Of a DNA stretch of 10,592 nt, positions 1 through 10,592 are shown one piece after another. The notes beneath the pieces were generated by a model, which saw only the letters and a list, made by a program, of their open reading frames with translations, did not search any database and was not told the origin of the DNA. A program made the translations under genes and the position numbers. Origin of the DNA: Polyangiaceae bacterium (lineage in GTDB: Bacteria; Myxococcota_A; Polyangia; Polyangiales; Polyangiaceae); assembly GCA_050287085.1 (NCBI GenBank), contig JBNKBE010000045.1, forward strand, positions 1 through 10,592, read 5' to 3'. The stretch's first letter is position 1, and each line of letters opens with the position of its first letter.

Positions 1-108
1 GTTGCTTGGGGGCGCCCTGTTGCTTGGGGGCGCCCTGTTGCTTGGGGGCGCCCTGTTGCTTGGGGGCGCCCTGTTGCTTGGGGGCGCCCTGTTGCCTTGG
101 GGCGCCCT
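1..108. repeat. 18-bp tandem repeat (GTTGCTTGGGGGCGCCCT), at least 6 copies, truncated by the window edge; in frame within the ferritin-like CDS
   Basis: Five identical copies at 1-90 and one variant (GTTGCCTTGGGGCGCCCT) at 91-108, with no spacers. The minus strand encodes QGAPRQ followed by QGAPKQ units. Confidence 0.97.
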
Positions 109-763
109 GCAGGGAGACGGCGCCGTGCTGGTCATCGAGCGCGGTCTCAACGGCTGCTAGAAACGCGTCGAAAGCGGCCTCTTCGATCGCCAGCACCCGC
201 TTCAGAGCGGGACGCCAGTCTGAGAGCGCAGCCGATAGTCTTTGGCTCATGTTGCGCAAGTGGTCATCTTCGTCGCTGATGATGGCCTTGACCGAAATGC
301 GGGCGTTTGCCTTCTCCAGCAGGGACTGATACACCGGATAGAAGCCGTGCGCGCGCACTTCGATCGCCGTGCTCGTTAGCAGGTAGCAGAGTTCCGGTCG
401 TCCATCTCCCAGGGCGCTGAGAGCTGCCTGGTCGACCGTTTGAAAGTAGCGTTCCGCTTCGGCACCAGCCAGGGTATCTGCATCAGAAAAGGTCGATACC
501 GCTTCGCTACCGCCCAGCGCGAGGGCGAACTTCTTCAGGCGCATCGCGTGAACTGCTTCTTCGAGGATGTGCTGTAACCCTTCGAGATCGAGTGTTTCCG
601 AGCGTCTAGTCTTCAGCATCTTGCGAACGCCGACGTACTCCAAGCGCGACAGGGTATTGAGGAAACGCGCGTGGGTGGAGCGAGAGTCGAGGACTCGAGC
701 GAGTATCTCTTCAAGGCGGCGCTGACTGGGGGCTGCCAGCAGGGAATCGATGAAAGACTGCAT
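1..763 (-). CDS. Ferritin-like (diiron-carboxylate four-helix bundle) protein with a C-terminal (QGAPKQ)n tail; 3'-partial, runs off the window start
   Basis: Translated by hand; absent from the ORF track because it has no stop in the window. ATG at 763-761 is preceded on the minus strand by GGAGTAAGG. It reads MQSFIDSLLAAPSQRRLEEILARVLDSRSTHARFLNTLSRLEYVGVRK...HILEEAVHAMRLKK...CYLLTSTAIEVRAHGFYPVY...IISDEDDHLRNM...QGAPRQ(QGAPKQ)n and is open for 254 codons. The pattern E42, E69xxH72, E135, E165xxH168 matches the ferritin-like diiron ligand set. Confidence 0.88.
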   Translation of the reverse strand, partial: MQSFIDSLLAAPSQRRLEEILARVLDSRSTHARFLNTLSRLEYVGVRKMLKTRRSETLDLEGLQHILEEAVHAMRLKKFALALGGSEAVSTFSDADTLAGAEAERYFQTVDQAALSALGDGRPELCYLLTSTAIEVRAHGFYPVYQSLLEKANARISVKAIISDEDDHLRNMSQRLSAALSDWRPALKRVLAIEEAAFDAFLAAVETALDDQHGAVSLQGAPRQQGAPKQQGAPKQQGAPKQQGAPKQQGAPKQ

Positions 764-894
764 CGCTCAGACCTTACTCCACTTGCGGGTCGGCGCGCCC
801 CGAAAATGGCGCCCTCGGGCAGCGGCGGAACGGCGCGGCTTGCGTGTCGCGGCGAATCCGCATAGAGAGCCCGGGCGCTGCGCGCACAAATTTC

Positions 895-2541
895 ATGATC
901 ACGCTTTCAGGAATCAGCAAAGCTTTCGGAGCACAGACCCTTTTTTCCGACGTGAGTTTGCAGCTCAATCGGGGAGAGCGGGTGGGGCTCGTCGGTGCCA
1001 ACGGTTGCGGCAAGAGCACTCTGCTGAAGATGCTGATCGGCGACGAGCCTACCAGCGGCGGGGAGGTGGCATACACTCGGGGCGCGAAACTAGGCGTTCT
1101 ACGTCAAGATCAGTTCCTGAACGACGACGAGGCCATCATTTCGGTTGCCATGGCCGGCGATCGAACGGCGTCGGATGCGCTTCGAGAGCTCGATGCGCTG
1201 GCTCATGAGTCCGATCCAAGCCCCGAGCGCCTTGGGGAGCTGAACGACGTTCTCATCGCTCACGATGGCTACACGCTGGAGTCCCGTGCGGCCGAGATTC
1301 TGGAAGGACTCGGGATCCCGGCGGGGGTGCACGGCCATGCGCTGGGGACGCTTTCCGGAGGATATAAGCTCCGCGTCTTGTTGACCCAGGTGTTGGTGGG
1401 TAGTCCTGACGCTCTCCTTCTGGACGAGCCCACCAATCACCTCGACATTCTGAGCATCCGTTGGCTCGAGGAGTTTCTGCAGGGTTATCGTGGCTGCGCG
1501 GTCGTGATCTCGCATGACCGTCGCTTTCTGGATCGCTTTGCCACTCGGATTCTCGACGTCGACTACGGCTCGGTCATCTCCTACAGCGGCAACTATACGC
1601 GCTTTCTGCAGCTCAAAGAGGAGACTAGAACCCGCAAGGAAGCCGAGATTGCGAAAGTCGAGCGTGCAATCGCGGAGAAGAAGGCGTTCATCGAACGATT
1701 CAAGGCGAAGGCAACCAAGGCGCGTCAGGCGCAGAGTCGGGTCAAGCAGGTGGAGCGCATGGAGATCGAAGTGCTCGCCCCTTCGAGTCGGCGCTCGCCC
1801 AACTTCAACTTCCGGCAGCGGAGGCCCAGCGGACGCGATGTGGTTGAGGTCTCGGAGATCTGCCATGCATTCGGCGACAAGCCCGTGCTGGATGGCGTAG
1901 CGTTTACAGTTCGGCGCGGCGAGCGCGTCGCCATCATCGGGAAGAACGGCGTTGGCAAGAGCACCCTGCTCAACATCTTGGCCGGTCGCCTGCAGGCAAA
2001 TGCCGGCCAAGTGCAGTGGGGCCATGAAACCCATGTGGGCTACTTCGAACAAGATCACGCCGACGTTTTGGCGCACCCCAAGGCGACGCCTCTGAGCCTA
2101 GTATGGGAACGCTGCCCGATGGAGACGACGAACTTCGTGCGGGGGCATTTGGGGCGTATGTTGTTCTCGCGAGAAGAAGTGGACAAGCCCGTCAGCGCAC
2201 TTTCCGGCGGCGAGGTCGCACGCGTCATCTTCGCTCGACTGTCCGTGGATCAGCCAAACATCATGCTATTGGACGAACCCACCAACCATCTCGATATGGA
2301 GACCATCGAGGGGCTCAAGACGGGGCTAGCGGAGTACGACGGCACGCTCATCTTCGTCAGTCACGATCGCTACTTCGTGTCGGACCTGGCTACAAGAATC
2401 ATTGAACTCCGTCCGGACGGGATGAGCGACTTCCAGGGTACCTACGATGAGTATTTGTCCAAGCAGGGGCAGGATCATCTGGATGTGGAGAGCGCCGTCA
2501 ACGAAGAGCGCTCGAAGCGGCGTGTCAAGCGCAGTAAGTGA
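895..2541 (+). CDS. ybiT: ABC-F family ribosome-associated ATPase, YbiT-like (548 aa)
   Basis: Two ABC domains (Walker A GANGCGKS and GKNGVGKS, LSGG twice, LLDEPTNHLD twice, SHDR twice), an inter-domain linker with KATKARQAQSR, and no transmembrane segments. Segments LRQDQF, DGYTLESRAAEILEGLGI, KLRVLL, LGRMLFS and GTLIFVSHDR..VS.LATRI.E resemble E. coli YbiT as recalled. The ATG at 895 (MITLSGISKAFG) fits the family N-terminus better than the GTG at 844. Confidence 0.9.
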   Translation: MITLSGISKAFGAQTLFSDVSLQLNRGERVGLVGANGCGKSTLLKMLIGDEPTSGGEVAYTRGAKLGVLRQDQFLNDDEAIISVAMAGDRTASDALRELDALAHESDPSPERLGELNDVLIAHDGYTLESRAAEILEGLGIPAGVHGHALGTLSGGYKLRVLLTQVLVGSPDALLLDEPTNHLDILSIRWLEEFLQGYRGCAVVISHDRRFLDRFATRILDVDYGSVISYSGNYTRFLQLKEETRTRKEAEIAKVERAIAEKKAFIERFKAKATKARQAQSRVKQVERMEIEVLAPSSRRSPNFNFRQRRPSGRDVVEVSEICHAFGDKPVLDGVAFTVRRGERVAIIGKNGVGKSTLLNILAGRLQANAGQVQWGHETHVGYFEQDHADVLAHPKATPLSLVWERCPMETTNFVRGHLGRMLFSREEVDKPVSALSGGEVARVIFARLSVDQPNIMLLDEPTNHLDMETIEGLKTGLAEYDGTLIFVSHDRYFVSDLATRIIELRPDGMSDFQGTYDEYLSKQGQDHLDVESAVNEERSKRRVKRSK

Positions 2542-2621
2542 CCGCTGCCCGCCTGTTCAAGTAGGCACTCGGGAGCGCCCAAACGATTGCGATGGCGTCG
2601 TCGACAGCGATAGGATGAACC

Positions 2622-2978
2622 ATGATCATGCGCGTGTATCACTATCCCCGTTGCTCCACCTGCCGCAAGGCCGTGAGTTGGTTGGAGGCCCACGGCGTCG
2701 AGCACGAGCTCGTCGACATCGTGGTTAATCCGCCGGGGGCAGCGGTCTTGGCGGAGGTCCTGCGCAAGAGCGGTCTCGAGCTCAAGAAGCTGTTCAATAC
2801 TTCCGGTGAAGTATATCGCCGCGACGGCTACAAAGAGCGGCTGAAGACCATGTCGGAGCAGGAGGCGCTCAACGCGTTGGCCGCGGACGGCAAGCTGATC
2901 AAGCGACCATTGCTACTGGGAGACGAACTCGCCCTCGTCGGATTTCGGGAAGCGAGCTACGCCGCGGCGCTGCTCTAG
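2622..2978 (+). CDS. ArsC/Spx/MgsR-family thioredoxin-fold protein (YffB/YusI-like) with CxxC
   Basis: YHYPRCSTCRKA, LKKLFNTSG..YR and LIKRPLL motifs; 118 aa; AGGA upstream. An alternative ATG lies at 2628. Confidence 0.9.
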   Translation: MIMRVYHYPRCSTCRKAVSWLEAHGVEHELVDIVVNPPGAAVLAEVLRKSGLELKKLFNTSGEVYRRDGYKERLKTMSEQEALNALAADGKLIKRPLLLGDELALVGFREASYAAALL

Positions 2979-3033
2979 GCTCCTGCTCCGCATGCCGATC
3001 GGGCCAGCGCTCGCGCTCAGCGCGGCGTCCCCG

Positions 3034-4509
3034 TCACGACTTGGGTGTGGTGGCGGCCGCCATCCGCTCTGCAAAGTCAGCCAAGATCGCCGCACCTTGC
3101 GTCTTGCGCAGTGCGTTAAGTCTCCGCCGCAGCTCAGCGAAGCGCTCGCTGTCTTGGCGAATTTGCTGCAGCTGGGGCATGAACTCGCGTTCGATGAGCG
3201 CACCTTCTGATATGCGCTCCGCGTCGTTTTCCTCGACTCCCGGCATCATGCCCACGTAGCTGGGATGCTCTCCTTCGTCCCCCCCGGTCGTCCACAAGGT
3301 GGCCCGCGCCATGGGGAGCGTCTTCATGAATGCACGTCGCGCGCTTAGCAAGCGTTCGGCCGCGAACGCCAGTTCTGTCGCCATGGACGCGGCGTCTTCG
3401 GTGGCCGTTGCAAGACGCTCTCGGAGCGACGGCTGGATCTGTACCAGTTGCCACAGGCGCTGGCGTCCTTCGCCCGCGTCGGCCAGCGTCAAGGCTCGTC
3501 CTTTCGACAGTGCCGGGGCGGCGTCGGCGTGCATACGTGCCCAAGCGATGAGCTTGCGGCGAGCCTCATAGCTGTTGGCATACACAGCGCTGGCTCGCGA
3601 GTGAAAGCGCCAGCCGCTTCCAGAAGCCCACCAATCACCGCTGCTCGCACGGATGGGTACCAAATTTGCCCGCGCCGCGTCGTGGACAAAGCTGCGACCG
3701 TCCAGCGGCGGCCATATCCGACCACTCTCGGCGTAGGGATCTGGCTGGAAGACAATCTCCGAGCCGGGAGTCCATTCGGCGCGCGGGGACTGATCAAGGG
3801 CCGTTAGGCGGCGGAGGTCGACACCGTCCACCGCTGCAAGCTGAACTCCCCGCTGACTGTCAAGGCCTCGCACCTCTCCCAGCAGAGCCAGCGCCGAGTC
3901 GGCTCCCGCGCCCGTCCGGGTCTCGAGCTGGCCCAGCTCGGCAAGCGCGCGAACGCGGTCGAGCGCTAGACCGATGCCGAGTACGAAAGCTTCGCGGATA
4001 CCTTCACCATTGGTCGCAACGGTGTCGACGAAAGGCATGGGACACAATGCGTCCACCAACCGCTTGACCGCGCTGCGGGCCATGGCCTCGGGTGTGTCCC
4101 GCTTGTTCGCCTGGAGCACCAAGCCTAGCGGTGGGTCCTGCTGCCTAACGATCTCCACGGTTGTGCGCAGGAGCTCGAGTGTTGGTTGAAAATGCCCGTC
4201 CCGAGTGTCTGAGACGAAAATGACGGCATCGGCGTGGTCGAGTAGATACCGACGCCGATGTCGCAGTTCAACTTGCCCAGGAACGCTCACCACCTGGCAT
4301 CGTATGGGGCGTCCGTCGTACAACCCCCCTACATATTCTACCCAGTCGAAGTAGACAGTACGCCCATTCGATTCTTCCGGCGACTGAAGCTTCGACCCCT
4401 TCCAAGACTCGCTCAAGCTGCGCAGCGTGGTGGTCTTGCCCGAAAACGGTGGTCCGTCATAAACCAGACGAACCACGAGTCGGCCTGTTGTCGCATCGAT
4501 GTACGCCAC
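3034..4509 (-). CDS. MglA-family small Ras-like GTPase (aa 1-~195) fused to an uncharacterised ~300-aa C-terminal region
   Basis: The N-terminus MAYIDATTGRLVVRLVYDGP aligns without gaps to MglA MSFINYSSREINCKIVYYGP. G1 GPPFSGKT; G2 with the intrinsic Arg finger R50 (RTVYFD); G3 VPGQ79; G4 NKRD; G5 VAT. GTG start, 491 aa. Confidence 0.9.
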   Translation of the reverse strand: MAYIDATTGRLVVRLVYDGPPFSGKTTTLRSLSESWKGSKLQSPEESNGRTVYFDWVEYVGGLYDGRPIRCQVVSVPGQVELRHRRRYLLDHADAVIFVSDTRDGHFQPTLELLRTTVEIVRQQDPPLGLVLQANKRDTPEAMARSAVKRLVDALCPMPFVDTVATNGEGIREAFVLGIGLALDRVRALAELGQLETRTGAGADSALALLGEVRGLDSQRGVQLAAVDGVDLRRLTALDQSPRAEWTPGSEIVFQPDPYAESGRIWPPLDGRSFVHDAARANLVPIRASSGDWWASGSGWRFHSRASAVYANSYEARRKLIAWARMHADAAPALSKGRALTLADAGEGRQRLWQLVQIQPSLRERLATATEDAASMATELAFAAERLLSARRAFMKTLPMARATLWTTGGDEGEHPSYVGMMPGVEENDAERISEGALIEREFMPQLQQIRQDSERFAELRRRLNALRKTQGAAILADFAERMAAATTPKS

Positions 4510-4540
4510 GCGTGAGAAGAGGCAGACGCGACGCTGCGCT

Positions 4541-4903
4541 TCAGAGTGTCAGAGACTTTTCTGCAACGGCCAGCTGATGGCGTGCCATTGCTAGGTTACC
4601 GCGAGACCGGTCAAGTACCAAGTACACGAACATCGCATCGTTGGACGCAAGGGGGCGGATCAAGTGATACTGGGTGCCAAGAGTGATGAGGATGTCTTCG
4701 ATGGCTTCGTTGAGCTCGAGTGCCTTCATCGTCTTGCGTTTCGCGCGAACGACCTCCGTGTTGCCGGCGGCCGCCACCTCGAGGTTGAGCGCCCCGCCAC
4801 CCTCAGCGCCGAGCATCATACCGCTGCCGCTGTCAACCAGTGCAGCTCCTACTGCGCCGTCGACCTTCATGATGGTAACCAGTGTCTCTTTTACGTTTGC
4901 CAA
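4541..4903 (-). CDS. Roadblock/LC7-domain protein (MglB-like candidate GAP or partner of the adjacent GTPase)
   Basis: 120 aa with a roadblock pattern: VDGAVGAALVDSGSGMML...AAAGNTEVVRAKRKTM...IEDILITLGTQYHLIRPL...FVYLVLDRSRGNLAMARHQL. TTG start with AGGAG 9 nt upstream; ends 31 bp before the MglA-like gene on the same strand. Confidence 0.88.
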   Translation of the reverse strand: MANVKETLVTIMKVDGAVGAALVDSGSGMMLGAEGGGALNLEVAAAGNTEVVRAKRKTMKALELNEAIEDILITLGTQYHLIRPLASNDAMFVYLVLDRSRGNLAMARHQLAVAEKSLTL

Positions 4904-5630
4904 GGTTCTTTGCTCCTAGCTGAATCTGTGTTGAAGATTGCGAACGCGACAAGTCGTTTACCTTGCGGCGGCGTTCGTGGGTCCAAACGTAGTGCATGCC
5001 GAAGCGTGGGGCTAATGAAATTTTGCATCGGCGCAGAAGATGAACAGTCCCTACACCGGCGCACCTGTGTGGTGATGGCTCTTTGAGTATGTCGGGCGCC
5101 TCATGGGGTGGCATGTGTGTTCAGGCGTTGGGGGCTTGTGTTCTACGGCGCGATAGAAGGGCTGCGAGCGAGGCTAGAGTGCAAGAGCCGCGTATTGCTG
5201 AGTTTTCGACGTGGAATGACGGATATAGGTAAACAAATGGTGACGTGGTTCGGTGTGGGTGGTGCTGTTTGGGGTCGAGCGAAAATGTGTTCCGGCTGTG
5301 AACGCTCGCTGTATCGCTCAGCAGCCGTGTCGACGTCGTGTCCACAACACGCGGGTCGTCCGAGACGGTCCGCCTCGCGCTTCAGGAGCGAGCCCCGCCG
5401 CGGGCAACGGCGCGAGTCGTCGGATCCTTCGATTCCGGAGGTGTCCTCGTGTCGATTCTGAGCCGCGCCCCAGCGTAGGCTGTAGGAGTGGCGTTGTGCT
5501 TGTAGGTTTCCAGCTCCAAAAGTAGAACGATATCCGGTATGTTCGTTCCTCGGAGCAGGGCCGGGCGAATGCGGGTCAGACGTACCCTTGGCAGCTCTCC
5601 GATGATATGAGGTGAAGGAAGGCCTCCGCG
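4904..5630. promoter_or_regulatory. Long divergent intergenic region, presumed promoters of the roadblock-GTPase and wHTH-lipoprotein operons
   Basis: 727 bp between divergent starts with no convincing CDS. It contains TGTGTTC at 5116, 5137 and 5286, and GAACGA-N12-TCGTTC at 5525-5548. No clear sigma70 or sigma54 consensus was found by eye. Confidence 0.5.
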
Positions 5631-6626
5631 ATGAACTCACAAACACTGATCGATGCCATCGTTAGGCAGACAACGGTTCTCATTGCGCGGCTATCGACGG
5701 CCCAAGGGGTACGATCTCCCTTGGCGCACGTGGCGAATGAAGTGTTCGTTGGATTGGTGCGTGAGCTCGAGCAGCAGGGGGTTGGCAAGAAAGTCATCGC
5801 CGACATGTTCGGTTTGGCCCTGCGCTCCTATCGCCAGAAGGTACAGCGTCTGGGGGAGTCGGCGACGACGCGCGGCGTTACGTTGTGGACAGCGGTGCAC
5901 CAGTTCCTATCGGAACGCGAGTCAGCAACTCGGGCGGAGCTCATCGAGCGTTTCAGGCGAGACGATGAAGTATCCGTACGCGGCATCCTGAACGACCTGG
6001 CGGAGAGCGGCCTCGTGGTGCGCAGTGGCCGCGGGGATGAGACGCGCTATCGCGTGGCAAGCGAAGAGGAGCTGGTGGACGTTGGCGCGTCTCTGCCCTC
6101 CCGCCCCGAGGACGCCAATGCCGCGCTGGTCTGGCTACACGTGTATCGTGAAAGCCCGGTGCGTGCGGACCTTCTCGAGCAGCTGGTACCCCTGCCCAAG
6201 GCCGCCGTTCGGGACGCGGTTACCAGGTTGGAGAGCGACGGCCGGATTCGGCTTGAAACGCGCGCGGATGGGGACTACCTGACGGCAGATCAGTGCCTCA
6301 TCCCGCTCGGTGAGGCAGCAGGGTGGGAAGCGGCCGTGATAGACCACCATCGCACGATGCTCAACGCCCTGGCGGCAAAGATCAACAGCGGGCATCGCGT
6401 GGCCGCCAAAGGTGACGAGCTGGGTGGCACAACGCTCACCTTCGAGCTATGGCCAGGGCATCCCCGCGAACTAGAGGTTCGCCAGCTCCTGGCGAGCACT
6501 CGGGCCAGAGTGATCGGCCTTTGGGAGGATGTGGCCGACTACAATCGAAGTCAAACTGTGGGAGAGACCTATCAGGTGCACTACTATTGTGGACAATACG
6601 TCGTGGCGGAGGAGGATACAGAGTGA
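5631..6626 (+). CDS. Putative DNA-binding regulator: N-terminal HTH, two winged-helix modules and a DUF4423/TIGR02147-like C-terminal alpha/beta region (331 aa)
   Basis: HTH-like GVGKKVIADMFGLALRSYRQKVQRL; wHTH-like ATRAELIERF...VRGILNDLAESGLVVRSG...RYRV and VRADLLEQLVPLPKAAVRDAVTRLESDGRI. The tail DHHRTMLNALAAKI...GGTTLTF...EVRQLLASTRARV...YQVHYY resembles the DUF4423 layout. A purine-rich RBS (GAGGTGAAGGAAGG) lies upstream. The CDS call is confident; the family call is inference. Confidence 0.75.
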   Translation: MNSQTLIDAIVRQTTVLIARLSTAQGVRSPLAHVANEVFVGLVRELEQQGVGKKVIADMFGLALRSYRQKVQRLGESATTRGVTLWTAVHQFLSERESATRAELIERFRRDDEVSVRGILNDLAESGLVVRSGRGDETRYRVASEEELVDVGASLPSRPEDANAALVWLHVYRESPVRADLLEQLVPLPKAAVRDAVTRLESDGRIRLETRADGDYLTADQCLIPLGEAAGWEAAVIDHHRTMLNALAAKINSGHRVAAKGDELGGTTLTFELWPGHPRELEVRQLLASTRARVIGLWEDVADYNRSQTVGETYQVHYYCGQYVVAEEDTE

Positions 6627-8407
6627 TGGCGCGGGATGTCACGCTGACTCGGGGCTCGGTCTGTCTCGGACCGGTCTGTCTCGGACTGGTCTGCTTCGGA
6701 CTGGTCTGTTTCGGACTGGTCGCGTGCGGGCCTTCTTCGGAAGGGACGCCGCTGCCGACGGAGGTCAAGACCGGCAGCCAGACGAACTGGCTGAAAGCCT
6801 GTGACGACTCGGAAGAGTGTGATCAGCTGGAGTGCTTATGTGGCCTATGCACGCTCCGCTGCGATGCGGAGTCGCAGTGTGCCGGCCTAGGGGACGCGAG
6901 CTGTGTTTCTGAGTCGGACCCGGGCGCGGCGCTACTGTGTGGTGGCGCAGCTCCGCCAGGGCCCCTCTGCCTAGGCACCTGTGAGGGGGTAGAATGCGGA
7001 AGCAATGAGGTCTGCGCGGCGGGAGTGTGTATCCCTTCGGCGCCCCCGCCCGAAACGCCGGAGGCGGACGCTACCGCTCCGCTGGAGCCCCTGGCGGACG
7101 CACGTGTCGACATTGATCCAGCGCAGCGCTTTCAAACGTTGCTCGGTTTTGGCGCCGGGTTAGCCTACATGGAAGACCAGATTGTGGCTCATCCGAAGAA
7201 GGCCGAGCTGTTTGAGGATATGTTCGTCGCTTCTGGCTTCGAGGTGTTGCGTATTCGCAATCGCTTCGACGACGACAATGCTGCGGAACTCGCCGCGGCC
7301 ACCGAGATCCTGACGAGTGCCGCGACATTGTCAGGTCGCAAACCCACCGTCTTCATGACGTCGGGAAGTCCGCCAGCGCGGCTAAAAGCCAATGCGTCGC
7401 GCTCTTGCTGCGGTGATGATGGGGCCTGCACCCTATCGCGCGCCCAGGCGGGCGGCTTTGACTACGATGGTTTGGCCGAGTACTGGAGGGCCTCTCTCCA
7501 AGCCCACGACGACGCCGGAATTCTTCCAGATTTCGTGAGCCTACAGAACAACCCGAACTGGGTGCCAGAGGCGCCTGCCTGCGTTGATGCGTGCCGCTTC
7601 TTGCCGAGCGAAGGCGTTGCATCCATGACGCTTGGAGGGGAGCTCATGGACGTCGCATACCCGGGCTATGACGAGGCGCTGCGTGCCGTCCGGGGGGCGC
7701 TGGACACTTTGCCTAGCATTCCGCGTCTGGCGGCTCCGGAGCTCAACTCTATCGACGGATTGGCGGACTATCTGACAGCACTCGATCCGGTGTCCTACGA
7801 CGTTCTGTCGTTTCACCTGTACGAGACGGATCCCCTAACGCTGGAGCCGCAACAACTTGAGGCACTCCGCGATCTAGCGGAAGGCACGGGCCACGACCTG
7901 GTGCAGAGCGAGGTGCAAGTCGACGGAGTTGGGACCGCGATGCTCGGGCACTATTCGCTGTCGTCGGCCAATGCCGTGGCTTACCTAGCCAATGACTTCG
8001 TCGCTACCGGCGCTCAAGATGAGGACTCCGCCGCCCTCATCGCCTTGGACGGTAGCGGGTATACATTGCTCGAGCCCTACTACGCACTGGCGCATTATGC
8101 CCGCCACACCGAAGCGGGTTGGGTTCGAGTCGGCTTGGTCAGTTCGTCGGAAAGCGTTCTGGCTACCGCGTGGGTCGCACCGGATGAGACGGCTCTCACC
8201 GTCGTGTTGTTCAACCCGGGCCAGGACGAACTCTCGGTCGAGATAGCCATTGCAGAAGAGCTGATGAGTGCATTTTCGGCGAGCGGCGTCGAACGAACGG
8301 TCTTCGGCACTGACGAGCGCGGGGCTGAGCTGGGGGAGCTTGCGGACAACGGTGTCGTCTTGTTGCCCGCCCGCGGGATGGTTACGGTCGCTCTGAGCCA
8401 GAAATGA
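6626..8407 (+). CDS. Lipoprotein: Cys-rich N-terminal domain, Pro-rich linker and GH30-like (clan GH-A) glycoside hydrolase domain with acid/base Glu replaced by Asn (593 aa)
   Basis: The ATG at 6626 overlaps the upstream TGA (TGATG) and follows GGAGGAGG. Lipobox LVA-C34; 14 Cys in aa 59-135. GH30 hallmarks: IDPAQRFQTLLGFGA, LRIR, SPPARLK, FVSLQNNP (canonical QNEP), FHLY, LVQSE (nucleophile), YYALAHYARHTEAGWVRV, and a C-terminal beta domain ending LLPARGMVTVAL. Confidence 0.85.
   Translation: MARDVTLTRGSVCLGPVCLGLVCFGLVCFGLVACGPSSEGTPLPTEVKTGSQTNWLKACDDSEECDQLECLCGLCTLRCDAESQCAGLGDASCVSESDPGAALLCGGAAPPGPLCLGTCEGVECGSNEVCAAGVCIPSAPPPETPEADATAPLEPLADARVDIDPAQRFQTLLGFGAGLAYMEDQIVAHPKKAELFEDMFVASGFEVLRIRNRFDDDNAAELAAATEILTSAATLSGRKPTVFMTSGSPPARLKANASRSCCGDDGACTLSRAQAGGFDYDGLAEYWRASLQAHDDAGILPDFVSLQNNPNWVPEAPACVDACRFLPSEGVASMTLGGELMDVAYPGYDEALRAVRGALDTLPSIPRLAAPELNSIDGLADYLTALDPVSYDVLSFHLYETDPLTLEPQQLEALRDLAEGTGHDLVQSEVQVDGVGTAMLGHYSLSSANAVAYLANDFVATGAQDEDSAALIALDGSGYTLLEPYYALAHYARHTEAGWVRVGLVSSSESVLATAWVAPDETALTVVLFNPGQDELSVEIAIAEELMSAFSASGVERTVFGTDERGAELGELADNGVVLLPARGMVTVALSQK
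6658..6721 (+). repeat. 15-bp tandem repeat, about 4.3 copies, encoding VC(L/F)G(P/L) in the lipoprotein signal peptide
   Basis: Units GGTCTGTCTCGGACC / GGTCTGTCTCGGACT / GGTCTGCTTCGGACT / GGTCTGTTTCGGACT / GGTC translate to VCLGP VCLGL VCFGL VCFGL V. Confidence 0.95.
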
Positions 8408-8657
8408 GCTACTCACCGTCCCCGCCTGGGGCGGCGTGACCCCAGGACTGTTGGAAGATTCCGAGCCTGTCGTAGGGTTAAGTCTCAGAAAAGAAAGTCA
8501 GATTGCACAAGCCGCTGCCGGCAAGTTTGGCGCGAGCAGTATTGTCCGCTTTGAGCCACAAAGCAGTAGTATTGCGTTTAGCCCAGCGAACCTGGCGCTC
8601 AGTCCCTGCTCGCTGCAGTTCTGGGCTTCTTTCATTGCCATCGCACACAGAATCACG

Positions 8658-10502
8658 ATGACCGACTCTCCTTTCTCAGCCCAGCAAACTCAAAGCCTTG
8701 CCCGCGAACACGCCGCCTTCAGCGGTTGTGCGCTTGGTCGTCGAGTGGCGGGCGCGCTTGTGCTCGGCTCAGTGCTGGGCCTTGCCGGATGTGAGGCCAG
8801 CACTGACTCAACGCCGGGAAGCTCGGCGCCGGTCGCAGGCTCCGGCGCCTCGGCGGGGGCAGGTGGCGCGGTGGGCGCCGCAGGTGGTGGGGTAACCGGC
8901 GGTGGCGGGGCGCCCGGCGGCGGCACGACAACAGGAGGAACCGGCGCTGCGGGCGGTCCGGTTGACTCTGGGGCTGTGCGGTATACCGCGCCCGCCGGGG
9001 TCCTTCGACGTTTGACGCGTTCTCAAATAGCGAACGCGGTTTTCGATCTGATCGGCGCCCAAATCACCATCGACGACAGTTTCAAAGATACCTACGACGG
9101 GGTCTTCGCTTCGGTAGGGGCTGCCAAGATCACTTCGAGCGATACGGATGTGGAGATTTTTGGCAGCGCGATTGAGGCGGCGGTAGGTGAAGCCTTCGGT
9201 AGCGCGGCTCAGCGAGATGCGCTCATGGGCTGCGCGCCCCAGATGGCGGCGGACGCATGCACGCGAGGATATTTCGAGCGCATCGGGCAGCGCGCCTGGC
9301 GGCGACCGCTAGGGGCCGAGGAGCTGGACCAGGTGGTGGGTGTTGCCGAGCTGGTTGAGACAGAACTCGGTGATGTGACCGAAGGCGTGAAGTGGGCTAC
9401 GGTGGCCCTGCTCGGCTCCCCGAACTTCTTGTACCGCGCCGAGCTGGGTATGCCGGGCGCGGATGGCAGCTTTCGCTTGACTCGCTACGAGATAGCGGCG
9501 CGCTTGTCGTTCCTGTTGTGGGATTCGGTGCCAGACGATCAACTGATGGCCGATGCGGCGAGCGGGAAGCTAGACACCAAAGAGGGTGTCCGCGCCTCCA
9601 TCGAGCGCATGATGGCCATGCCAGCTGGGCGTGAGTCGGTCGGCACTTTTGCCGATCAGTACATGCGACTCGACAAGGTCCTGGAGCTCAAGAAGGACCC
9701 AGCCGCATTCCCGGAACTCTCCGACACGCTACGGCAGGCAATGATTCGCGATATGCGCGCCGTGTGGGAAGCCAATGCGTTTGACGATCAGGCGAGCGTA
9801 ATGGAGCTGTTCACCACCGACAAGGCGATGGTCAACTCCAGCTTGGCGCGCATCTATGGCATCGACGATGCGGGGTTGACGGAAGAGACCTTCGAGCTTC
9901 GCTCGCTACCCGCTGACAGTCCGCGGCGTGGCATCCTGGGTAAGCTGGCGTTCTTGGGGCCGCAAGCGAACCAGAAGGAGGGCTCTCCAACGTTGCGCGG
10001 CAAGTTCATTCGGGCTGCTGTCATGTGTCTGGAGGTTCCTTTGCCCCCCGGCAACGTAGTGCCGGTCATTCCGGAGTCGCCTGAGGGTATGCCCATGACC
10101 AAACGGCAGCGCCTGGAAAAGCATCGTACGGACCCCACCTGTGCGGGCTGCCATTCTCTATTCGACCCGATGGGGGTTCCTTTCGAGAGCTTCGACGCGC
10201 TCGGCCGCTACCGGGAGATGGAAGAGGGGCTGCCGATCGATCCCTCCGGGGAGTTCGACGGCACGCCTGTGGCAGACTCGGTTGAGTTGGCCGACGTCAT
10301 CGCGGCGAGTGATCGGGTTTCCGGTTGCTTGGTGCAGAATTACTACTCCTACGCGGTGGGTCACGAGATTCGACCCGGTGACGCGAGCGTTGTCGACGGT
10401 CTGAAGGCGTCGTTTGAAGCGTCCGGGTACCGTCTCAAAGACTTGATCGTTGAGGTTGCCTCGAGTGATGCGTTTGCCTCCGTTGCACCTCAAGCCGACT
10501 GA
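8658..10502 (+). CDS. DUF1592-family lipoprotein (DUF1587/1595/1592/1588/1585 architecture) with one CxxCH motif (614 aa)
   Basis: Lipobox LAG-C45 and a Gly-rich linker, then LRRLTRSQIANAVFDL, RAWRRPL, ALLGSPNFLYR, YEIAARLSFLLWDSVPDDQL, SPTLRGKFIR..MC, RLEKHRTDPTCAGCHSLFDPMGVPFESFDALGRYR and CLVQNYYSYAVG. The ATG at 8658 is preferred over the GTG at 8436; the exact start is uncertain. Confidence 0.9.
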   Translation: MTDSPFSAQQTQSLAREHAAFSGCALGRRVAGALVLGSVLGLAGCEASTDSTPGSSAPVAGSGASAGAGGAVGAAGGGVTGGGGAPGGGTTTGGTGAAGGPVDSGAVRYTAPAGVLRRLTRSQIANAVFDLIGAQITIDDSFKDTYDGVFASVGAAKITSSDTDVEIFGSAIEAAVGEAFGSAAQRDALMGCAPQMAADACTRGYFERIGQRAWRRPLGAEELDQVVGVAELVETELGDVTEGVKWATVALLGSPNFLYRAELGMPGADGSFRLTRYEIAARLSFLLWDSVPDDQLMADAASGKLDTKEGVRASIERMMAMPAGRESVGTFADQYMRLDKVLELKKDPAAFPELSDTLRQAMIRDMRAVWEANAFDDQASVMELFTTDKAMVNSSLARIYGIDDAGLTEETFELRSLPADSPRRGILGKLAFLGPQANQKEGSPTLRGKFIRAAVMCLEVPLPPGNVVPVIPESPEGMPMTKRQRLEKHRTDPTCAGCHSLFDPMGVPFESFDALGRYREMEEGLPIDPSGEFDGTPVADSVELADVIAASDRVSGCLVQNYYSYAVGHEIRPGDASVVDGLKASFEASGYRLKDLIVEVASSDAFASVAPQAD

Positions 10503-10535
10503 CCCTGCCCTGTAACGAACGAAGAGCTGATGACC

Positions 10536-10592
10536 ATGAAAGCACTGAATCGACGAACCGTTCTCCGGGGCCTCTTGACCACAGGCGCCACG
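10536..10592 (+). CDS. 5' end of a Tat-signal protein, probably the DUF1552-family partner of the DUF1592 gene (partial)
   Basis: MKALNRRTVLRGLLTTGAT contains the twin-arginine motif NRRTVLRG. It starts 33 bp after the DUF1592 stop, with GAAGAG upstream and an alternative ATG at 10530. DUF1552 genes typically follow DUF1592 genes; only 19 codons are visible. Confidence 0.72.
   Translation, partial: MKALNRRTVLRGLLTTGAT

Follow-up and report, generated by a model that had tools for sequence, protein, structure and literature searches.

What connects a cytoplasmic regulator with an exported lipoprotein when no membrane transducer is encoded between them? The question is raised by a gene pair in contig JBNKBE010000045.1 of a Polyangiaceae bacterium (assembly GCA_050287085.1; positions 1 to 10,592 of the forward strand, the whole stretch of DNA analyzed, referred to below as the window). 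The first gene (5631..6626; all features of the pair are on the plus strand) encodes a regulator of 331 amino acids, and the second, an open reading frame at 6626..8407, encodes a predicted lipoprotein of 593 amino acids. An earlier note, made from the letters of the DNA alone, had pointed to the overlap of these genes and to a ribosome binding site inside the first, and both are present. The TGA stop and the ATG start overlap at 6624-6628 (TGATG), so that base 6626 is common to the two frames, and the Shine-Dalgarno sequence GGAGGAGG (6608..6615), within the 3' end of the regulator gene, lies 10 nt ahead of the partner's ATG. The same note had suggested that the link between the proteins might be cis-acting, cotranslational, or mediated by the N-terminal peptide of the lipoprotein. 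The results presented here support the last of the three: a short tag in the partner, GSQTNWL in the window (amino acids 50 to 56; 6773..6793), is likely the signal that the regulator reads, and covariation between the two proteins points to the tag as the proposed ligand. By analogy, the family likely works like HetR with its exported precursor PatX.

The pair belongs to a large family. Among 8000 candidates scored, 2745 were homologues of the regulator, with 637 representatives at E values up to 1e-30. The regulator was present in 29 of 61 relatives, with a maximum of 34 matches per genome and 29 full-length copies in one genome (G006), and there were matches in 60 of the 301 genomes sampled across the phylum, some of them weak and partial. 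Titled records with homologues were mostly Polyangiaceae or Myxococcales metagenome-assembled genomes. Full-length regulators (E < 1e-60, at least 290 columns, <85% identity) formed two sets, a first one of 160 and a later, held-out one of 128. By a strict pattern, a tagged partner was found at 134 of the 160 and 93 of the 128 loci (227/288 in total), compared to 2/160 in an opposite-strand control for the first set. When the pattern was relaxed and the count was restricted to nonredundant regulators with at least 300 nt downstream, 242 of 274 preceded an exported protein with [GD][SGT][EQNS][TS][HN][WF] shortly past the lipobox cysteine (opposite-strand control, 3/274). The two frames overlapped or abutted (gap at most 0, by the first candidate start) in 179 of the 227 pairs. 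The pairing of regulator homologues with a coupled, motif-bearing exported protein, which had been anticipated from the single locus, was recovered consistently across the family. It also exceeds chance within the source genome, because the four regulator paralogues there occupy the same four loci as the four matches to a profile of the tag and cysteine module. Tandem cassettes, with two or three regulators per 10 kb, were observed at loci L077 (contig C53 of genome G024), L047, and L232.

No Pfam or NCBIfam family matched the 331-amino-acid regulator over its cutoff, in agreement with the early impression that it lies outside the characterized families. AlkZ-like, DUF5805, FeoC, MarR, and TrmB were considered as family labels and rejected, as these weak Pfam matches reflect winged helices. 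Regulator and partner define an unnamed family that is undescribed in the literature searched. By sequence, the regulator is a member of neither HetR nor DUF6502 nor DUF4423.

In order to describe the covariation between regulator and tag, the six tag positions are numbered −2 to +3. In the first 134 pairs, positions −2, −1, 0, +1, +2, and +3 each picked their own regulator column: 302, 172, 298, 222, 295, and 246, respectively. In the 93 held-out pairs the same column was on top at five of the six positions, and column 298 ranked third at the remaining one. The peaks of the six tag positions (z, 4.3 to 8.6) stood above those of twelve flanking positions of the partner (z, 2.8 to 4.0; 186 pairs). 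The pairings were nearly categorical across all 227 pairs: Arg at 298 accompanied a tag Glu in 110 of 114 cases and Trp at 298 a residue other than Glu in 106 of 107, while Ala at 246 accompanied Trp (155/156) and Thr at 246 accompanied Phe (53/54). An acidic residue (Asp or Glu) at 302 coincided with Asp at tag position −2 in 1 of 87 cases. Small or polar residues at 295 (Ser, Gly, Thr, Gln) went with a tag His, and Asn, Val, or Ile at 295 went with a tag Asn. The window pair conforms to this code, with W298 facing Gln, I295 Asn, A246 Trp, C222 Thr, and Y172 Ser.

The contacts also have a register. Tag positions −2, 0, and +2 map onto successive turns of helix 286-307, and −1, +1, and +3 map onto the other side. 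Second-rank peaks run antiparallel along strand 267-272 (−2 with 272, −1 with 270, and +2 with 267), and couplings within the regulator link the same region (172-270, 269-298, 269-295, and 267-295). In the window protein, the C-terminal residues that covary with the tag are A246, K250, T267, L269, T270, E272, I295, W298, and A302; R291 of this domain is invariant. The pattern fits a peptide strand lying in the cleft of a hood-like domain, and we infer that the tag would be bound in this way. A translation-arrest function of the tag was also considered and dropped, because the protein that covaries with it comes from the preceding gene of the operon and because long cargoes follow it.

Covariation of this kind could also arise if the pair were simply a cassette inherited together, with the tag serving as a sorting or folding element for some other protein. 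The tag does occupy the place of surface-sorting signals, such as the lipoprotein export signal (LES) of Bacteroidota, which has a comparable location, and its Trp and Leu could pack on the cysteine module behind it. In addition, the independent changes on the family tree are few and none is significant alone. However, flanking positions of the same gene share that ancestry and show no peak, and the six tag positions point to six different columns, which follow the register of helix and strand and complement the tag in charge and size. With a tree built without the covarying columns, the mean numbers of independent pairs changing in the same versus the other direction were 1.9/0, 4.0/0, 4.7/0, 5.0/0, 7.1/1.2, and 2.2/0.3, and six wrong pairings did not track each other on the tree. 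Furthermore, the tag persists in partners that lack the cysteine module, and in the source genome it was found only beside the regulator. Thus, mere coinheritance seems very unlikely as an explanation.

The predicted architecture of the regulator suggests how a peptide might be read. The earlier note had recognized three helix-turn-helix (HTH) or winged-helix modules, and the AlphaFold2 model (predicted local distance difference test [pLDDT], 82) shows a helical N-terminal HTH region (5631..5861) and two winged helices, plus a fourth, C-terminal domain that the note did not name. Winged-helix domain 1 (amino acids 83 to 149; 5877..6077) matched known winged-helix domains with VIA Z scores of 8.6 to 9.2, and domain 2 (amino acids 157 to 223; 6099..6299) holds the tag-covarying residues Y172 and C222. 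The C-terminal domain (amino acids 231 to 325; 6321..6605), which has two long helices, reached a pLDDT of 87 when folded alone. In a structural search with this domain, chain B of 4ynl, the HetR hood with PatS6, ranked first of 48,161 PDB chains (Z, 4.9; root-mean-square deviation, 3.8; 76/76 residues); the next chains had Z scores of 3.5 or less and were mostly single helices. By ESM features of the whole regulator, HetR was the best named family (0.90, 198/256; it came 11th, after clusters of the family itself). Extended segments in the C-terminal part of the model are confident yet unpaired, which would fit a swapped dimer.

HetR of Anabaena/Nostoc PCC 7120 (structures 4YNL and 4YRV) offers a parallel on several levels. 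In both systems, an N-terminal HTH that reads a palindrome is followed by middle domains and a C-terminal domain of alpha-beta-alpha-beta hood-like layout; for the family described here the HTH assignment comes from computed covariation at residue 68, and the window copy has no convincing site. The proposed ligand is in both a hexapeptide with Ser or Thr in fourth place, and, as with PatX, it lies inside an exported precursor and would be bound as an added strand. PatS6 docks onto the HetR hood by adding a strand to beta3, and it touches acidic residues on the helix that follows as well as Arg223 at the start of the hood domain (PMC4649674). The geometry deduced for the tag follows the PatS6 layout, in that a strand is added to the hood and contacts are made with the following helix. 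The systems differ in that there is no sequence match and the regulator here has two winged helices in the middle. The HetR site is GGG-N5-CCC, with a spacer of 5 bp, whereas the sites here are GTG/GGG-N10-CAC/CCC, with 10 bp; the ligand is XRGSGR there and GSETHW-like here. The precursor here is a lipoprotein of 179 to 827 amino acids whose cargo varies and whose translation is coupled to that of its own regulator. Finally, HetR is cyanobacterial, whereas this family occurs in Myxococcota with up to ~30 paralogous pairs per genome that have matched codes.

A putative operator was found ahead of the regulator genes. The palindrome gGTGcnnAATTnngCACc occurred in 121 of 156 upstream regions (expectation-maximization log-likelihood, 341, compared to 13 to 24 in shuffles), and a search seeded with one half-site, free of any symmetry constraint, recovered its right half. 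The family palindrome is GTG-N10-CAC and lies 31 ± 1 bp ahead of a −10 box. Among 183 sites that scored at least 7 bits in 280 upstream regions, a strict TAnnnT was located 30 to 32 bp from the palindrome center in 68, compared to 4 or fewer at every other distance. The palindrome spans −51 to −36, the promoters have no −35 consensus, and in 29 of 107 such promoters the start codon lies 12 to 13 nt past the start of the −10 box, making them leaderless. A CRP-type site was rejected on spacing, because spacers of N8 or N6 fit much less well than N10.

One residue of the recognition helix appears to read this site. When the two middle bases were ignored in the choice of sites, none of the other 331 columns had as much mutual information with either base as column 68 (R68 in the window copy; codon 5832-5834). 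Arg68 went with G..C middle bases in 27 of 33 cases, compared to 1 of 150 for other residues, and of 5 supported independent pairs a mean of 4.4 changed in the same direction and 0 in the opposite one (median P, 0.06). It is highly likely that the N-terminal HTH reads GTG-N10-CAC, or GGG-N10-CCC in the copies with Arg68. Control looks local, because the palindrome is not enriched across the source genome: there were 73 palindromes of at least 13 bits compared to 83 expected (Markov control), and a global regulon was accordingly rejected. Minus 10 boxes at the right distance from palindromes numbered 16, compared to 13 to 29 at control offsets. At C51:1367 and C15:58137 of the source genome, lipoprotein genes are preceded by strong palindromes that have a −10 box at the family spacing; these genes are possible targets in trans, and the genome-wide count is at chance level.

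These observations can be arranged into a model in which the regulator is a HetR-like dimeric activator of its own operon that is switched off by the partner's hexapeptide after export, proteolysis, and return to the cytoplasm; we consider the chances of the full model to be about even. It starts from a coupled pair with a conserved tag and variable cargo and a palindrome at a fixed distance from the −10 box. The regulator would probably activate, given a site at −51 to −36 whose distance to the −10 box is constant to within 1 bp and the lack of any −35 consensus. Such a position and such tight phasing are those of class II activators. The tag would very probably lie extended alongside strand 267-272 of the hood; its positions −2, 0, and +2 would contact helix residues 302, 298, and 295, and its positions −1, +1, and +3 would contact residues 172, 222, and 246. 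By analogy with HetR and PatS/PatX, binding of the tag might then move the middle domains and release the DNA, and the peptide might be made by export, cleavage, and reentry; the same analogy underlies the proposed sign of its effect. As a result, each surface protein would have its own negative-feedback loop, kept separate from those of its paralogues by matched pocket and tag codes. PatX is exported by Sec and cut by the peptidase PatP, and the resulting hexapeptide binds HetR (PMC12756182). This sequence of export, cleavage, and binding is a precedent for a system with no membrane transducer.

The same regulator, operator, and pocket could instead gauge export, with the ligand being the tag in the precursor still within the cytoplasm, so that a backlog of precursor shuts the operon. 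The secreted regulators FlgM and ExsE follow this logic. Translational coupling, which makes the two proteins together, would suit it, and the tag lies only ~50 residues from the start, ahead of any cysteine that needs oxidation. Because the tag is read from both faces, the chain must be unfolded, and the loci inspected by eye (uncounted) showed no peptidase or permease gene associated with the pair. The nearest precedent speaks differently: full-length, uncut PatX in the cytosol fails to bind HetR and requires export (PMC12756182). The diversity of paralogue codes (in genome G006, the 19 partners have 12 distinct core 4-mers) also exceeds the needs of a general gauge, although it would fit feedback gene by gene. 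It is rather unlikely, on balance, that the family works as an export gauge.

The activator-type position of the site would also suit a peptide that acts as a coactivator. Breakdown of the surface protein, or receipt of the peptide from neighbors, would free the tag and turn the operon on, in a replace-on-loss or quorum loop. Peptide-activated loops are known from ComRS and PlcR-PapR, and the cargoes include several protease inhibitors or baits (serpin, Kunitz, Kazal, and pacifastin), for which induction upon cleavage would be sensible. However, the only structural relative is turned off by its peptide (PMC4649674), and activation by the tag is unlikely.

Several observations weigh against the model of a HetR-like activator that is switched off by a returning hexapeptide. 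None of the independent-pair tests reached a median P value below 0.05 (best, 0.0625), and the held-out loci belong to the same family tree. No tagged partner was found for 32 of the 274 regulators, and a divergent subfamily (E, ~1e-50; loci L205 to L218) is mostly coupled to long lipoproteins that lack a TH/NW tag. The tag abuts the first cysteine of a disulfide-rich module, which may hinder its release. The window copy, which has Arg68, showed no convincing palindrome in its 727-bp upstream region, where the best site scored 5.8 bits compared to 5.8 to 21 for other Arg68 sites. The hood match is weak in absolute terms, with no chain reaching a Z score of 5; Foldseek with the C-terminal model returned two rows only, with E values of ~8, and missed HetR; and a profile search of PDB sequences at E up to 10 gave generic winged-helix matches and no HetR chain. 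The low score, the Foldseek miss, and the lack of sequence-profile support temper our rating of a common origin of the C-terminal domain and the HetR hood, which we nevertheless regard as probable. Searches with the whole model by Foldseek and VIA yielded winged-helix domains only, with HetR absent among the matches listed. Peptidase_S48 (PF03574) and HetR_C (PF18460) were absent from the Pfam scan of the regulator and were not among the 25 families shown in scans of 118 members, and a PF18460 search of three regulator-rich genomes found no regulator. Upstream of the window copy, 5572-5587 (CGG-N10-CCC, 1.1 bits) and 5277-5296 (5.8 bits) are weak candidates for a decayed operator, with no −10 box shown at the family spacing.

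The partner in the window illustrates how the tag is presented. Its signal peptide (6626..6727) ends in the lipobox LVAC (residues 31 to 34), as judged by eye. The mature chain had been thought to begin with GSQTNWLKAC; with the lipobox cysteine at residue 34 and the motif starting at residue 50, the tag instead begins 16 residues into the mature chain. Across the family it starts 3 to 28 residues past the cysteine, mostly 9 to 14. Four copies of a 15-nt unit at 6659-6720 (VCLGP VCLGL VCFGL VCFGL) lengthen the signal peptide of the window partner and add four cysteines ahead of the lipobox. The module of 14 cysteines that had been noticed behind the tag does hold exactly that number in residues 59 to 135 (6800..7030), and it gave no consistent family match (at most 5 of 97 members). 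A constant unit of TNWL and cysteine module followed by variable cargo had been expected. The conserved tag and the variable cargo, with 94 clusters among 166 cargoes, were confirmed, but the constant part is the hexapeptide: 6 of the 227 partners keep the tag with no more than 2 cysteines behind it, and the cysteine module is therefore usual yet dispensable. Fifteen of the 94 cargo representatives had a Pfam match (serpin, Kunitz, Kazal, pacifastin, RCC1, Kelch, and FGE-sulfatase, among others), and 79 had none.

The cargo in the window, described earlier as sugar-enzyme-like, resembles GH30 xylanases (7106..8395; match to 9ywn over residues 161 to 590; E, 3.8e-46); Glyco_hydro_30C fell just below its cutoff, and the GH30 sequence and domain layout are present. 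GH30 enzymes have two catalytic glutamates, the acid/base in the motif NEP and the nucleophile. The nucleophile is retained in the window cargo (QSE), and the acid/base Glu is replaced by Asn (NNP). In every orthologue in which the motif was found by script, NEP is changed to NNP, NDP, or NHP and the second Glu is retained; orthologous cargoes occur at L005, L006, L035, L038, L041-L043, and L250, among other loci. This conserved, noncanonical cargo might bind sugars or act as an enzyme on activated substrates.

The earlier note had proposed a counterpart of the DUF4423 and DUF6502 proteins. The parallel holds insofar as both of these families precede tagged exported proteins; as relatives they are at most distant cousins (hhalign E values of 0.001 to 0.002 and 0.046, respectively), and HetR is the more informative relative. 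TIGR02147/DUF4423 (PF14394) genes, which are present in the same genomes as the regulator family, had a coupled lipoprotein with a G[TS]ET[GD]NP-like tag past the cysteine in 28 of 28 full-length loci (of 30), as judged by eye. The hhalign matches (E values, 0.0011 and 0.0022; probability, 13 to 20%) are weak and cover the last winged helix and the C-terminal domain. DUF4423 differs in its N-terminal half and its tag, and its hidden Markov models (HMMs) miss the regulator family; its matches in the source genome are genes other than the four regulators. There are three of these (C13:102562-103473, one on C5, and one on C54). Two overlap a lipoprotein gene with a GTETGNP- or GTKTGNG-type tag, and the third has a longer N terminus and no overlapping partner.

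For DUF6502 (PF20112), an exported partner with an N-terminal G[IMLV]GG[TS]G or GMSGTG motif was found by eye in 27 of 28 full-length loci (of 30). By ESM features of the C-terminal domain, DUF6502 was the nearest named cluster (0.85, a lead only), and TIGR02147 was also a lead. The differences are that there is no HMM match, that the proteins have ~270 amino acids, that the motif is often repeated, and that DUF6502 was not found in the source genome. At L219, a SGGTHW-like unit is repeated in the open reading frame after the regulator, recalling the repeated tags of DUF6502 partners. A literature search outside subscription journals found no paper on DUF6502 and a single one for DUF4423/TIGR02147; among the best matches, it likewise gave no title on HetR homologues in myxobacteria and no paper with the term "HetR-like." RRNPP receptors (Rap-Phr, PlcR-PapR, PrgX, and ComR) share the arrangement of a cytoplasmic regulator with a linked exported peptide precursor and have paralogous pairs with matched specificity. 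Their hosts are Gram-positive, their peptide is bound in a TPR domain, and those of their pheromones that come from lipoprotein genes derive from the signal peptide, not the mature chain. Pfam scans of 118 members and the model revealed no TPR family or TPR-like helical array in the regulator.

To our knowledge, HetR has so far been treated as a cyanobacterial speciality with its own fold, and most known cases of peptide signaling to cytoplasmic receptors are in Gram-positive bacteria. If the proposed reading of the tag is correct, the logic of HetR and its peptide extends to Gram-negative bacteria with a social lifestyle, in which dozens of copies would operate orthogonally. The family provides a DNA site with a code of one residue, a putative ligand of six residues, and a pocket code of six contacts from which the outcome of swaps can be predicted. 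The tags after genes of TIGR02147 and DUF6502 would gain their missing reader, and the family would form a natural set of orthogonal switches under peptide control. More tentatively, and with some doubt, HetR with PatS/PatX could be one branch of a wide, unrecognized superfamily of hood-domain peptide receptors that includes TIGR02147 and DUF6502 with their own tags, and myxobacteria could run dozens of insulated copies, each matched by its residue code to a hexapeptide that is cut from its own surface lipoprotein and passes between cells for lateral inhibition. In that case, activator-inhibitor control would decide which cells of a swarm display which surface protein.

The remainder of the window holds several other genes. 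Divergent from the pair, on the minus strand at 4903-3034, are a 120-amino-acid roadblock-like gene and then a gene for a 491-amino-acid small-GTPase protein, which we take to be MglA-like and which has ~300 additional C-terminal residues of no known family. A lipoprotein with the domains DUF1587/1595/1592/1588/1585 is encoded at 8658-10502, with the next gene beginning at 10531; the same domains form the cargo of one tagged partner elsewhere (L088). The genes at 844-2978 and 74-766 encode an ABC-F type ATPase, an ArsC/Spx-like protein, and, on the minus strand, a 231-amino-acid protein with a weak Pfam match only; they are unlinked to the pair. At the start of the contig (1-105), an 18-bp unit is repeated about five times.

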